Below are positions 1-3,316 of a stretch of DNA of 11,141 nt, piece by piece. How positions within the stretch are numbered: the first letter of the stretch is position 1; each line of letters opens with the position of its first letter. The notes beneath the pieces were generated by a model. The model was not told the origin of the DNA. It saw nothing but the letters and a program-made list of their open reading frames with translations, and searched no databases. The stretch lies in the IMG/VR virus record IMGVR_UViG_2529293240_000017; one strand, given 5' to 3'. Source of the stretch: a virus. Taxonomy: Duplodnaviria > Heunggongvirae > Uroviricota > Caudoviricetes. Position numbers and translations under genes: made by a program.

Positions 1-231
1 TCATGGCGGCAGCAAGTTCAGAGGCAGGAACAACCTGTTCTCCGGCGGCCACAGCAGTAAGACTTCCTTCCTGGTATTGCTTACGCCAGAGAATAACTGG
101 CTGGCTGCTACACCATGTTGCCGGGCAACGAGGGAGACCGTCATCCCCGGTTCAAAGCTCTGCTGAACAATTGCGATCTTTTCCTGTGTGGTACGCCGTC
201 TGCGTTTCTCCGGCCCTAAGACATCAATCAT
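1..231 (-). pseudogene. insC: IS2 InsC (OrfA), frameshifted by a 1-bp deletion and cut by the window edge
   Basis: Translation starts [47 protein letters not shown], then diverges from the intact copies. Copy 1 has gaataactgg (91-100) where copy 2 has gaaataactgg. Confidence 0.7.
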
Positions 232-322
232 CTGTTCTCCAATGACTAGTCTAAAAACTAGTATTAAGACTATCACTTAAATAAGTGATACTGGTTGTCT
301 GGAGATTCAGGGGGCCAGTCTA
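1..322 (-). mobile_element. IS2 copy 1, partial (runs off window start); IRL end at 322
   Basis: Sequence 1-322 matches the IRL-proximal part of the full IS2 at 2178-2499, apart from two 1-bp indels and one substitution. Terminal sequence on the reverse strand is TAGACTGGCCCCCTGAATCTCC. Confidence 0.85.
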
Positions 323-1033
323 GCACATATCCGCACTCGCGAAACATATGGAACCCGGCGGCTCCAGACGGAGCTGGCAGAGAATGGCATCATCGTTGGT
401 CGTGACCGACTGGCACGTCTTCGTAAGGAGCTAAGGCTACGCTGTAAGCAGAAACGCAAGTTCAGAGCGACTACGAACCCGAACCACAATCTGCCAGTTG
501 CGCCAAATCTGCTGAACCAGACGTTCGCTCCTACAGCACCAAATCAGGTCTGGGTGGCGGACCTGACGTATGTTGCCACACAGGAGGGATGGTTGTACCT
601 CGCTGGCATCAAAGATGTTTATACGTGCGAAATTGTCGGCTACGCCATGGGAGAGCGCATGACAAAAGAGCTGACAGGTAAAGCCCTGTTTATGGCGCTC
701 AGGAGCCAGCGCCCACCTGCCGGGCTAATCCACCACTCTGACCGAGGTTCACAGTACTGCGCATACGATTACCGGGTCATACAGGAGCAGTCTGGTCTGA
801 AAACATCAATGTCGCGTAAAGGTAACTGTTACGACAACGCTCCGATGGAAAGCTTCTGGGGAACGCTGAAAAATGAGAGCCTGAGCCACTATCGTTTTAA
901 TAACCGGGATGAAGCCATCTCAGTAATACGGGAATACATTGAGATTTTCTACAATCGTCAGCGTCGTCACTCTCGTCTGGGGAATATCTCCCCGGCAGCC
1001 TTCAGGGAAAAATATCATCAGATGGCTGCTTAA
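323..1033 (+). pseudogene. IS3-family OrfB transposase (DDE/RNase H-like integrase domain), 5'-truncated
   Basis: Continuous frame from 323 to the stop at 1031-1033 (the ORF track lists 554..1033). Contains HHSDRGSQY and NCYDNAPMESFWGTLK, typical of IS3-family OrfB. No start codon or OrfA is present. Confidence 0.75.
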
Positions 1034-1076
1034 AAAAAGAACAAATGGTAGTGTCCGCTATTGCCAGTACACCCCA
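323..1076 (+). mobile_element. IS3-family element (IS600-like from memory), 3' portion only; 5' part replaced by IS2
   Basis: An in-frame OrfB-type transposase reading frame begins immediately after the IS2 end at 322. The right end is GGTAGTGTCCGCTATTGCCAGTACACCCCA, shared with the second copy up to about 1073-1076. Confidence 0.65.
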
Positions 1077-1180
1077 AGCAACACTGACATGCTAAAGCAA
1101 AAAATGATGAATAAGTTGAGTTGTGCATATGTAGCCTGACCGTCACAAAGTATATGGTGTCTGTACCAGTGGATTTGCCC

Positions 1181-2086
1181 CTATATTTCCAGACATCTGT
1201 TATCACTTAACCCATTACAAGCCCGCTGCCGCAGATATTCCCGTGGCGAGCGATAACCCAGCGCACTATGCGGATGCCATTCGTTATAATGCTCGAACGC
1301 CTCTGCAAGGTTCTTTGCTGCCGTTAACCCGTCTGGTTTGGGCATGATACTGATGTAGTCACGCTTTATCGTTTTCACGAAGCTCTCTGCTATTCCGTTA
1401 CTCTCCGGACTCCGCACCGCCGTGTTCTTCGGTTCAAGTCCCAACATCCGGGCGAACTGGCGTGTTTCATTAGCCCGGTAGCATGAACCATTATCCGTCA
1501 GCCACTCCACTGGAGACGACGGAAGATCGTTGCCGAAGCGGCGTTCCACCGCTCCCAGCATGACGTCCTGTACTGTTTCACTGTTGAAGCCGCCGGTAGT
1601 CACCGCCCAGTGCAGTGCCTCACGATCACAGCAGTCCAGCGCGAACGTGACACGCAGTCTCTCTCCGTTATCACAGCAGAACTCGAACCCGTCAGAGCAC
1701 CATCGCTGATTGCTTTCTTTCACGGCCACTCTGCCTGTATGTGCCCGTTTCGATGGCGGTACAGCAGGTTTTCGCTCAAGCAACAGCGCATTCTGGCGCA
1801 TGATCCGGTAAACACGTTTGGCATTGATCGCAGGCATACCATCAAGTTCTGCCTGTCTGCGAAGCAGCGCCCATACCCGACGATAACCATACGTGGGCAG
1901 CTCTCCGATAACATGGTGTATACGGAGAAGCACATCCGTATCATCAGTGTGACGACTGCGGCGGCCATCCATCCAGTCATCGGTTCGTCTGAGAATGACG
2001 TGCAACTGCGCACGCGACACCCGGAGACAACGGCTGACTAAGCTTACTCCCCATCCCCGGGCAATAAGGGCGCGTGCGCTATCCAC
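1181..2086 (-). CDS. insD: IS2 transposase OrfB (InsD)
   Basis: 301-aa [15 protein letters not shown]...[24 protein letters not shown], identical to the copy at 10236-11141. Recognised as IS2 InsD from memory. Confidence 0.9.
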
Positions 2087-2409
2087 TTTTTTGCCCGTCC
2101 ATATTCAACGGCTTCTTTGAGGAGTTCATTTTCCATCGTTTTCTTGCCGAGCAGGCGCTGGAGTTCTTTAATCTGCTTCATGGCGGCAGCAAGTTCAGAG
2201 GCAGGAACAACCTGTTCTCCGGCGGCCACAGCAGTAAGACTTCCTTCCTGGTATTGCTTACGCCAGAGAAATAACTGGCTGGCTGCTACACCATGTTGCC
2301 GGGCAACGAGGGAGACCGTCATCCCCGGTTCAAAGCTCTGCTGAACAATTGCGATCTTTTCCTGTGTGGTACGCCGTCTGCGTTTCTCCGGCCCTAAGAC
2401 ATCAATCAT
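2044..2409 (-). CDS. insC: IS2 OrfA (InsC), helix-turn-helix protein
   Basis: 121-aa [59 protein letters not shown]..., overlapping insD as expected for an IS3-family OrfA/OrfB pair. Confidence 0.9.
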
Positions 2410-2499
2410 CTGCTCTCCAATGACTAGTCTAAAACTAGTATTAAGACTATCACTTAAATAAGTGATACTGGTTGTCTGGAGATTCAGGGGGCCAGTCTA

Positions 2500-3273
2500 G
2501 GTACAGCATGAACCCTCAGACAGAAAACAAAGTGATGAGCGGCTAAAACTGGAGATTAAGGTGGCACATATCCGCACTCGCGAAACATATGGAACCCGGC
2601 GGCTCCAGACGGAGCTGGCAGAGAATGGCATCATCGTTGGTCGTGACCGACTGGCACGTCTTCGTAAGGAGCTAAGGCTACGCTGTAAGCAGAAACGCAA
2701 GTTCAGAGCGACTACGAACCCGAACCACAATCTGCCAGTTGCGCCAAATCTGCTGAACCAGACGTTCGCTCCTACAGCACCAAATCAGGTCTGGGTGCGG
2801 ACCTGACGTATGTTGGCACACAGGAGGGATGGTTGTACCTCGCTGGCATCAAAGATGTTTATACGTGCGAAATTGTCGGCTACGCCATGGGAGAGCACAT
2901 GACAAAAGAGCTGACAGGTAAAGCCCTGTTTATGGCGCTCAGGAGCCAGCGCCCACCTGCTGGGCTAATCCACCACTCTGATCGAGGTTCACAGTACTGC
3001 GCATACGATTACCGGGTCATACAGGAGCAGTCTGGTCTGAAAACATCAATGTCGCGTAAAGGTAACTGTTACGACAACGCTCCGATGGAAAGCTTCTGGG
3101 GAACGCTGAAAAATGAGAGCCTGAGCCACTATCGTTTTAATAACCGGGATGAAGCCATCTCAGTAATACGGGAATACATTGAGATTTTCTACAATCGTCA
3201 GCGTCGTCACTCTCGTCTGGGGAATATCTCCCCGGCAGCCTTCAGGGAAAAATATCATCAGATGGCTGCTTAA
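2500..3273 (+). pseudogene. IS3-family OrfB transposase, 5'-truncated and frameshifted
   Basis: Track ORFs 2561..2806 and 2833..3273 are the two halves of the OrfB frame. A 1-bp deletion (ctgggtgcgg here versus ctgggtggcgg at 551-561) splits the frame. Confidence 0.75.
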
Positions 3274-3316
3274 AAAAAGAACAAATGGTAGTGTCCGCTA
3301 TTGCCAGTACACCTCA
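2500..3316 (+). mobile_element. IS3-family (IS600-like) element, 3' portion, second copy; 64 bp longer at the IS2 junction than copy 1
   Basis: Homologous to 323-1076. The extra 2500-2563 reads in the OrfB frame as ...EPSDRKQSDERLKLEIKV before [10 protein letters not shown]. The right end ...CCAGTACACCTCA sits at about 3316, inside the holin gene. Confidence 0.65.

Follow-up and report, generated by a model that had tools for sequence, protein, structure and literature searches.

Two IS2-IS600 Modules in a Decayed Prophage of Shigella flexneri

How two nearly identical IS2-IS600 modules came to lie one after the other, with different joints and different downstream flanks, is the question raised by the DNA analyzed here. 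The window, 11,141 bp in full, is the beginning of the Shigella flexneri J1713 draft contig AFOW01000019.1, so that its position 1 is the physical contig end, and it contains a cryptic remnant of a Qin-type prophage. Alignment within the window confirmed the repeat noted in a preliminary description: 1-1076 and 2178-3316 are about 99% identical, and the IS2/IS600 joint differs by 64 bp. In both modules the IRL-proximal part of an IS2 on the minus strand (1-322 and 2178-2499) is followed by the 3' part of an IS600 (323-1076 and 2564-3316), and only module 2 carries 64 additional IS600 bases in between (2500-2563), corresponding to IS600 positions 447-510. OrfB begins at AHIRTRE in module 1 and at VQHEPSDRKQSDERLKLEIKV-AHIRTRE in module 2. 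To the right, module 1 continues through 93 bp into a complete IS2 (1170-2499), and module 2 ends inside a truncated holin gene.

These two modules are very probably ordinary debris of IS activity in a decayed S. flexneri prophage, juxtaposed when recombination of two IS2 copies inverted the DNA between them. The arrangement has no function beyond the activity of its insertion sequences, and its effects are the inactivation of the holin gene, ydfV and ydfJ, together with rearrangement.

The IS600 parts were assigned to a 1264-bp element with TGAGGT... termini and the genes for OrfA and OrfB. The window holds only positions 511-1264 (copy #1, 323-1076, plus strand, with OrfB from AHIRTRE to its stop, plus the IRR) and 447-1264 (copy #2, 2500-3316, plus strand, whose frame the draft breaks near 2796 through a 1-bp undercall, judging by sequence comparison). 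The DNA matching 323-1076 is labelled 'IS3-like element IS600 family transposase' in RefSeq, and both parts share 99.5-99.7% identity with the intact 1264-bp copy of S. flexneri J17B and with over 40 further copies.

The complete IS2 (#2; 1170-2499, minus strand, IRR at 1170 and IRL tip at 2499) measures 1330 bp in the draft, one less than in J17B (1331 bp), and both of its termini, an imperfect IRL (TAGACTGGCC...) and IRR (...GGGGCAAATCCA), are those characteristic of the IS2 of about 1331 bp. It is 99.7-99.9% identical to a K-12 IS2 remnant that bears the annotation 'IS3-like element IS2 family transposase'. Its orfA (2044-2409) and orfB (1181-2086) overlap on the minus strand and show the HTH/DDE frames expected for IS2; the Pfam domains HTH_Tnp_1 and HTH_21/rve/rve_3 were assigned to the same IS2 genes in L023 and L024. 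Another copy (#3; 9822-11141, plus strand) begins with its IRL at 9822. The window ends 11 bp short of the IRR tip of this copy; beyond it, the full contig passes from the IRR directly into an internal part of ydfJ.

An IS2-IS2 Inversion Separates the Two Halves of ydfV

The 93 bp that follow module 1 (1077-1169, minus strand), first taken for unrelated sequence, turned out to supply the half of ydfV that was lacking: their identity to a 3'-proximal part of this gene in the K-12 Qin prophage is 99%, and the remaining 5' part lies at 9645-9821 (plus strand). The 3'-proximal fragment has the opposite orientation to the remaining prophage DNA of the window, and the two halves are opposed relative to K-12, where ydfV is contiguous across the target site (...GTACCAGTAAGATG...). 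The 5-bp target duplication of the ydfV insertion, recognized by comparison with K-12, is today shared out between two IS2 copies, with ACCAG beside the IRR of IS2 #2 (1165-1169) and its inverted copy CTGGT beside the IRL of IS2 #3 (9817-9821). The genome L013 shows a corresponding overlap at the target site (3576-3581), and the junction of the ydfV 5' part with IS2 was also found in contigs L022 and L025.

Since the halves of the gene are opposed and the 5-bp duplication is split and inverted over the flanks of two IS2 copies, the segment 2500-9821 was flipped by recombination of two inverted IS2 copies, and this inversion is demonstrated by the present arrangement. IS2-targeted recombination had thus been correctly suspected in the preliminary description. 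The segment consists of the IS600 part and the Qin-like prophage remnant, with the genes holin', a PmrD-like ORF, two tRNAs, Q, rusA, ydfU, rem, hokD, relE, relB and the 5' part of ydfV. The un-inverted IS2 arrangement, which would be the direct intermediate, was found in none of the strains compared. The PmrD-like ORF encodes a protein that is very common in the sequence collection searched.

The IS600 Copies Predate IS2

The truncated holin ORF (3298-3477, minus strand; 59 aa; Pfam Phage_holin_2_1, PF04971) runs into the IRR of IS600 copy #2. An identical protein occurs in 1465 blocks of the sequence collection searched, and the holin::IS600 junction is widespread in S. flexneri; the ydfV::IS600 junction is common to the S. 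flexneri genomes L013-L021. In other S. flexneri the remnant is bracketed by two mutually inverted IS600 copies, of which the first interrupts the holin gene and the second lies at the 3' end of ydfV, and the ancestral order IS600 - ydfV - relBE ... holin' - IS600 (inverted), without IS2, was observed in about ten closed genomes. In the same genomes the segment is polymorphic for an IS600-mediated flip (L013 type versus L014 type). Since both IS600 right-end junctions occur in genomes free of IS2 at this locus, the IS600 copies predate the arrival of IS2.

The IS2 located at IS600 position 447 and ydfJ has no target duplication, which is consistent with a deletion or with recombination. On the IRR side of IS2 #3, 947 bp are missing relative to L013, namely IS600 positions 1-446 and 501 bp of ydfJ. 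The adjacent deletion proposed earlier is therefore real as a deletion beside an IS2, but it lies on the IRR side of the holin-side copy.

Comparison With the Closed Genome of Strain J17B

The genome of S. flexneri 3a strain J17B (CP100042) was closed with PacBio RS II and Illumina data (PMC10732043). It aligns with 323-11141 of the window in one colinear block of 99.89% identity. Where the window has IS2 bases 1-322 (minus strand, IRL tip at 322, at the contig terminus), J17B has an intact 1264-bp IS600 and no IS2. In the unique DNA compared, the draft and J17B differ by no substitutions and by four homopolymer undercalls, all other differences being inside IS copies. We infer from this sequence identity and from the similar names that J1713 and J17B are the same or nearly the same strain.

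The substitution at 1074, the 1-bp indels at about 2430 and 2796 and most of the other differences between the modules are absent from J17B. A further 1-bp indel, a homopolymer deletion at 93, sits in the IS2 arm that J17B lacks, and the two other IS2 copies of the window both have the extra A. Because substitutions are confined to IS copies and unique DNA shows only homopolymer undercalls, the minor indels and SNPs by which the modules differ are most likely consensus errors of the draft, as judged from these sequences. Moreover, a private IS600 SNP (T at position 909) is carried by copy #1 in J17B and by copy #2 in the draft, and this swap indicates that the assignment of reads within IS600 in the draft is unreliable.

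The indels, the terminal-repeat substitution and the 64-bp difference had been read as a biological signal; with most of the small differences and the module-1 joint itself absent from J17B, this reading is not sustained. It had also been stated that long reads with a single module would make the second one an artefact. A single module is indeed what J17B shows, a result that concerns this near-identical strain alone.

As regards the 3-bp target duplication of IS600, its left ends at this locus are lost or recombined. The flanks of the intact IS600 of J17B differ (GCT versus GAC), and a clean CAT duplication was seen around another IS600 copy, in L036. The left flank of IS600 copy #1 is an ISSfl3/IS66 remnant; a search for a J1713 contig with this remnant gave none, its exact protein being absent from the collection searched.

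Origin of the Module-1 Joint

The joint at 322/323, between the IRL tip of IS2 and IS600 position 511, admits two main explanations. There is about an even chance that it is a mis-join of the draft, in which a junction that, if real, belongs to another IS600 copy was threaded onto the ydfV-side IS600. The joint lies only 322 bp from the physical contig end, the nearest unique sequence is 754 bp away with nothing but repeat between, and the joint is missing from J17B despite the lack of substitutions in the unique DNA compared. The copy-specific SNPs swapped between the IS600 copies, draft-private variants that more than 40 further IS600 copies all lack and the homopolymer error within the IS2 arm point in the same direction. 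However, the same draft threads the remaining IS2 and IS600 copies as J17B does, the junction 30-mer CAGGGGGCCAGTCTAGCACATATCCGCACTCG is absent from all the collections searched, so that no alternative home is known for it, and the break coincides precisely with the IS2 tip, which would suit a true insertion at some site.

This precise break at the IRL tip is equally what a genuine extra IS2 insertion would leave. A recent insertion into the ydfV-side IS600 of the J1713 stock, independent of the one at position 447, is a realistic if doubtful possibility, and it could represent a true difference between J1713 and J17B. The lineage has evident IS2 activity, two other events having taken place within 11 kb, and the same stretch of IS600 has been hit elsewhere by other IS3-family elements (L033/L037/L038/L039; L036). 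Against this, the insertion is missing from J17B, the contig ends before its IRR side and the IS600 5' portion would be reached, and the SNP evidence makes the repeat threading of the draft unreliable. As a source of the 64-bp difference, a microhomology deletion between the CTGGAGATT motifs of the IS2 IRL and IS600 was considered and discarded, module 1 retaining the complete IS2 tip.

Duplication or Movement of a Chimera

A tandem duplication by unequal crossing-over between direct IS600 copies, followed by a 64-bp deletion at the IS2 tip, would account for the general layout. After the inversion the IS600 copies are direct and 2.24 kb apart, and such an exchange would be predicted to give exactly the order IS2 - IS600' - ydfV (93 bp) - IS2 - IS600' - holin. 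Yet the joint is then expected at 447 in both modules, and as it is seen at 447 and 511, an extra precise deletion is required; the SNP pattern is unlike that of a B/A hybrid copy, and J17B lacks the duplication. These observations make the duplication improbable. The preliminary view that this is not a simple tandem duplication was well founded, as the joints differ by 64 bp and the right flanks, ydfV and holin, are different and both ancestral.

Both joints were also searched for in other collections. Probes of 120 bp over them gave no contiguous match in 5,426 complete E. coli genomes and 72,556 plasmids, and their exact 32/33-mers gave no match in GTDB representative genomes or JGI metagenomes. 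The collections searched hold few or no Shigella chromosomes, so these negatives are weak evidence. A search with the 159-aa truncated IS600 OrfB detected other truncated copies with breakpoints at 590, 702 and 512, none of them with the IS2/511 joint. The neighbouring IS2 and IS600 elements of the E. coli TK3896 type were examined as a counterpart and set aside, their arrangement being different and more complex.

Movement of the IS2::IS600 chimera as a unit, also raised in the preliminary description, would imply two insertions; it has only the superficial likeness of the modules in its favor and is hardly credible, given that the IS600 ends lie at ancestral sites common to genomes without IS2 here, that the joints are unequal (447 and 511) and absent from the collections just named, that the same chimera with its own target duplication was not found in more than one context, and that its outer ends would be two right ends (IS2 IRR and IS600 IRR), whereas IS2 transposes alone, as a minicircle formed through its own IRR and IRL (PMC3299598).

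A Possible Landing Site in IS600 orfB

IS2 IRL joints were found in IS600 at positions 447 and 511 in the J1713 lineage and at 590 in L033/L037/L038/L039, all in the same relative orientation. The latter are another set of Shigella-type genomes. Additionally, in L036 an IS600 is inserted into IS600 with a CAT target duplication at 514-516. Within about 447-590 of IS600, a short sequence (CTGGAGATTAAGGTGG) agrees at 13/16 bases with the inner portion of the IS2 IRL. It is conceivable, though unlikely, that the 5' third of IS600 orfB (about 447-590) is a recurrent, orientation-biased landing site for IS3-family elements. IR-directed targeting has been described for IS911, and a process of this kind could be the cause.

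Proposed Sequence of Events

We consider it highly likely that the locus carries layered scars of IS events in a decayed Qin-type prophage of the J1713/J17B lineage (serotype 3a). The inverted IS600 pair already surrounded the remnant in the S. flexneri ancestor, in the holin gene beside ydfJ and at the 3' end of ydfV, as the shared junctions document. An IS2 then entered ydfV 93 bp from the IS600 end, with the 5-bp duplication ACCAG still visible. Another IS2 ended up between position 447 of the holin-side IS600, which its IRL adjoins, and an internal part of ydfJ, which its IRR adjoins; this end result is seen directly, with 947 bp gone and no target duplication. It was likely reached either by recombination after two IS2 copies had inserted in direct orientation or by an adjacent deletion associated with IS2. 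Homologous recombination of the inverted IS2 pair, to which the split duplication testifies, then flipped the 7.3-kb segment 2500-9821, so that what is left of the holin-side IS600 now has the same orientation as the ydfV-side IS600 and lies 2.24 kb downstream of it. The final order, IS600 - 93 bp of ydfV - IS2 - IS600' - holin', mimics two tandem modules. The IS2 1-322/IS600-511 joint would be the last addition, either a mis-path of the draft through the IS600 repeat (slightly favored) or an IS2 insertion specific to the stock.

An exotic-looking repeat architecture in an IS-rich genome such as that of Shigella may be fully explicable by a few ordinary insertion and recombination steps, and features at draft contig ends or small differences between repeat copies should not be taken for biology unless long reads support them. 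The Qin-like remnant is a recombination hot spot of S. flexneri: in some strains IS600 mediated the flip, and in this lineage IS2 did so independently.

Comparison With Known Systems

A phenomenon of this kind is already known. IS2 and IS600 belong to the group of five IS types expanded in Shigella (IS expansion is reviewed in PMC7373316 and PMC8072062), and IS-mediated inversions are well documented in S. flexneri, for example between Sf8401 and Sf301 (PMC1550401). As in those rearrangements, recombination of inverted copies flips the DNA between them and that of direct copies deletes it. Nothing fundamental sets the present case apart; it is small (7.3 kb), lies inside a prophage remnant and has tandem-like IS600 remnants, and it offers a compact example in which the inversion was reconstructed from a split target-site duplication.

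The IS2 copies agree with the copy-out/paste-in system (PMC3299598, PMC3219604) in the full 1331-bp element with IRL and IRR, orfA and orfB and the 5-bp duplication ACCAG. They depart from it in that the duplication was split over two IS2 copies by the later inversion, and in that the copy at IS600 position 447 has no duplication and has lost 947 bp on its IRR side.

The gene order ydfV-relBE-hokD-rem-ydfU-Q ... holin is the same as in the Qin prophage of E. coli K-12, with DNA identities of 96.7% over relBE-hokD-rem and 86.5% over ydfU. Unlike Qin, the S. flexneri prophage is reduced to about 6.5 kb and bracketed by IS600, and its late region from Q to holin resembles that of other lambdoid phages (tRNAs, PmrD-like ORF, DUF1737).

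Finally, an IS600-flanked defective Stx prophage of Shigella dysenteriae 1, reportedly described by McDonough and Butterton in 1999, is said to be amplified or deleted by IS600 recombination. PMC7819885 also deals with this subject. Both loci are lambdoid remnants between IS600 copies that serve as recombination substrates. In S. dysenteriae 1 these copies are direct and lead to tandem amplification or deletion, whereas in S. flexneri they were originally inverted and lead to inversion, in a window free of toxin genes.

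Organization of the IS2::IS600 Modules

The window corresponds to bases 1-11141 of contig AFOW01000019.1 from assembly GCA_000217895.2 (100% identity), given as S. flexneri J1713 in a published table (PMC6397287), and its position 1 is the physical end of the contig. By repeat finding and pairwise alignment, module 1 (1-1076) and module 2 (2178-3316) were ~99% identical; in each, the IRL-proximal 322 bp of a minus-strand IS2 lead into the 3' portion of a plus-strand IS600. Module 2 carries 64 additional IS600 bases (2500-2563): with an intact 1264-bp IS600 as reference, IS600 starts at position 511 in module 1 and at 447 in module 2, and the translations read AHIRTRE... 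and VQHEPSDRKQSDERLKLEIKV-AHIRTRE..., respectively. The preliminary description of a repeated IS2::IS600 arrangement with differing joints was borne out, as sequence, by this alignment. The modules are separated by a 93-bp spacer (1077-1169) and a complete IS2 (IS2 #2, 1170-2499), whose IRR is at 1170 and whose IRL tip is at 2499. A truncated holin ORF (3298-3477, minus strand) marks the end of module 2, and a third IS2 (IS2 #3), in the opposite orientation, runs from 9822 to the window end.

Comparison With a Closed Genome

The closed genome of S. flexneri 3a J17B (CP100042) rests on PacBio RS II plus Illumina sequencing (PMC10732043), and its locus matched window 323-11141 as a single colinear block with 99.89% identity. 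This establishes the order IS600 - ydfV (93 bp) - IS2 - IS600' (447) - holin' - ... - ydfV-A (9645-9821) - IS2 as real. Left of 323, J17B has the other 510 bp that complete an intact IS600, and no IS2 arm; the long-read check thus confirmed the order from 323 rightward, but not the IS2 arm of module 1.

Over 16.4 kb, the unique DNA of J1713 and J17B showed 0 substitutions and differed only where the draft undercalled four homopolymers; the seven substitutions that exist, and all other indels, were confined to IS copies. The terminal-repeat substitution at 1074 and the indels near 2430 and 2796, previously listed as differences between the modules, were not found in J17B. One-base deletions, mostly shortened homopolymer runs, were located at 93, 1105, 2430, 2796, 8617 and 8772. 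Five were scored against J17B, and the one at 1105 differs from K-12 as well; that at 93 (AAA to AA) was scored against the other two IS2 copies of the window, because it sits in the arm missing from J17B, which is of no use for judging it. These deletions cause the apparent frameshifts in IS2 orfA and IS600 orfB, and, taken together, they look like draft consensus errors of the pyrosequencing type, the platform being inferred. Moreover, a private IS600 SNP (T at position 909) belongs to copy #1 (ydfV side, 323-1076) in J17B and to copy #2 (holin side, 2500-3316) in the draft, and the draft also carries variants that were present in 0 of >40 other IS600 copies. Given the swapped SNP and the private variants, the draft repeat sequence is not to be relied on once the unique anchor is more than a few hundred bases away.

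Inversion and Deletion in the Prophage Remnant

The spacer, earlier taken for unrelated DNA, is in fact part of ydfV of the E. coli K-12 Qin prophage (99% identity). The rem-hokD-relE-relB-ydfV stretch adjacent to it in the K-12 locus corresponds to window 8025-9821, to which the 93-bp piece is oppositely oriented. K-12 reads uninterrupted across the site (...GTCTGTACCAGTAAGATGATGG...), whereas at window 1169/1170 ...GTCTGTACCAG adjoins the IRR of IS2 #2, and the reverse complement of 9817-9835 gives the IS2-IRL tip, then ACCAGTAAGATGATGG. ACCAG is thus a 5-bp duplication at the ydfV insertion, of the size expected for IS2. Since the flanks of one insertion, with ACCAG, now lie on two inverted IS2 copies, the site bears the signature of homologous IS2 x IS2 recombination; the proposal of IS2-based recombination is upheld by this split duplication. 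As read from these junctions, 2500-9821 is the segment flipped through recombination between two inverted IS2 elements.

Relatives of the locus were found through exact-protein matches of the truncated holin, ydfV and Q antiterminator. About ten closed S. flexneri genomes (L013-L021) carried the same remnant between two inverted IS600 copies, without IS2; one IS600 lies within the holin next to ydfJ and the other at the ydfV 3' end, with a ydfV/IS600 junction identical to window 1076/1077. The remnant (window 3317-9821) occurs in either orientation relative to ydfI/ydfJ and ynfE (L013 and L014 types), so the segment has also been flipped via IS600 x IS600 recombination. That flip is independent of the IS2-mediated one in the J1713/J17B lineage.

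IS2 #3 adjoins, with its IRR, the interior of ydfJ, as both the full contig and J17B show. Compared with L013, 947 bp are absent (IS600 positions 1-446 and 501 bp of ydfJ), and the two 5-bp flanks, GGTAC (IS600 side) and ATCAG (ydfJ side), form no duplication. With the inversion undone, the order becomes ydfI - ydfJ'' - IS2 - IS600' (447-1264) - holin' ... relB - ydfV::IS2 - IS600, colinear with the L013-type ancestor except for this deletion. The DNA could have been lost when two directly oriented IS2 insertions recombined, or through an IS2-associated adjacent deletion; of the adjacent deletion previously suggested, the loss at IS2 #3 stands, and its route is one of two candidates.

Origin of the Module-1 Joint

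Pure repeat, 754 bp of it, separates the module-1 joint (322/323) from the nearest unique DNA, and the contig ends 322 bp from the joint. The chances are about even that the joint arose where the draft assembly was threaded incorrectly through the IS600 repeat. A genuine additional IS2 insertion in the J1713 stock is a reasonable, if somewhat doubtful, reading: a real insertion somewhere is favored by the break falling precisely at the IS2 tip and by other IS3-family insertions in the same IS600 stretch (position 590; 514-516), but at this locus it is opposed by its absence from J17B and by the demonstrable mis-assignment of reads within IS600. No other occurrence of the joint was found in E. 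coli genomes, plasmids, GTDB representatives and JGI metagenomes, which is weak evidence, since these collections hold few Shigella chromosomes. In J17B (L023 16890-18600), the intact IS600 #1 is flanked on the left by a truncated ISSfl3 (IS66-family) and then another inverted IS600, placing the locus within a larger IS pile-up.

In four other loci (L033, L037, L038 and L039), the IS2 IRL lies against IS600 position 590 at 5848/5849, in the same relative orientation, and the opposite side of IS2 again lacks the IS600 5' part. In L036, a complete IS600 (4508-5772) sits within IS600 with a clean target duplication, CAT at 514-516, 3 bp away from the module-1 joint. That IS600 holds a preferred landing zone for IS3-family elements would be mildly novel, and is unlikely.

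Tandem duplication, with the now-direct IS600 copies undergoing unequal exchange, would produce the observed order, but it predicts position 447 at both joints, misfits the SNP pattern and is not found in J17B; the earlier statement that this is no simple tandem duplication holds. Movement of the chimera as a unit, also raised in the preliminary description, is excluded: both IS600 right-end junctions are ancestral and present without IS2, the two joints differ, and IS2 mobilises only its own IRR-IRL circle (PMC3299598), which counts against such transposition. A microhomology deletion between CTGGAGATT motifs cannot account for the 64-bp difference, since module 1 keeps the whole IS2 tip.

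Other Features of the Remnant

The ydfU/DUF968 gene (7082-8053, minus strand) has a ~66-bp in-frame deletion at 8017-8023, between 7-bp direct repeats (GTTCCGG), compared with other S. flexneri genomes; being common to J17B, it is a true lineage marker and no draft error. The Q antiterminator (5910-6698, minus strand) has 262 aa versus 273 aa in most S. flexneri genomes, and this exact variant, on only 10 contigs including J17B, is a useful lineage tag. Downstream of Q lie tRNA Arg-TCT (5480-5556) and a CAT-anticodon tRNA (5658-5733; Met by ARAGORN), both on the minus strand. Such placement of tRNA genes is characteristic of lambdoid and Stx-type phage late regions; in the window, no toxin genes follow them. 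A 111-aa ORF (4233-4568, plus strand), matched by the PmrD family of Pfam, lies between the tRNAs and the DUF1737/holin genes; it encodes a protein found identically in 34,862 blocks of the collection and extremely widespread in lambdoid prophages. Additionally, the toxin-antitoxin genes hokD, relE and relB (8867-9620, minus strand) appear to be intact ORFs, in contrast to the decay of almost all other prophage content.

The structure is an ordinary one: within a degraded prophage, IS2 and IS600 insertions are nested, and one deletion and one IS2-mediated inversion have occurred. Added to this are several sequencing errors of the draft and a feature at the contig end whose reality is doubtful. 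The kind of event is already known and the host is an IS-rich pathogen: five IS types, IS2 and IS600 included, have expanded in Shigella (PMC7373316), and comparable IS-mediated inversions are familiar from S. flexneri (PMC1550401).
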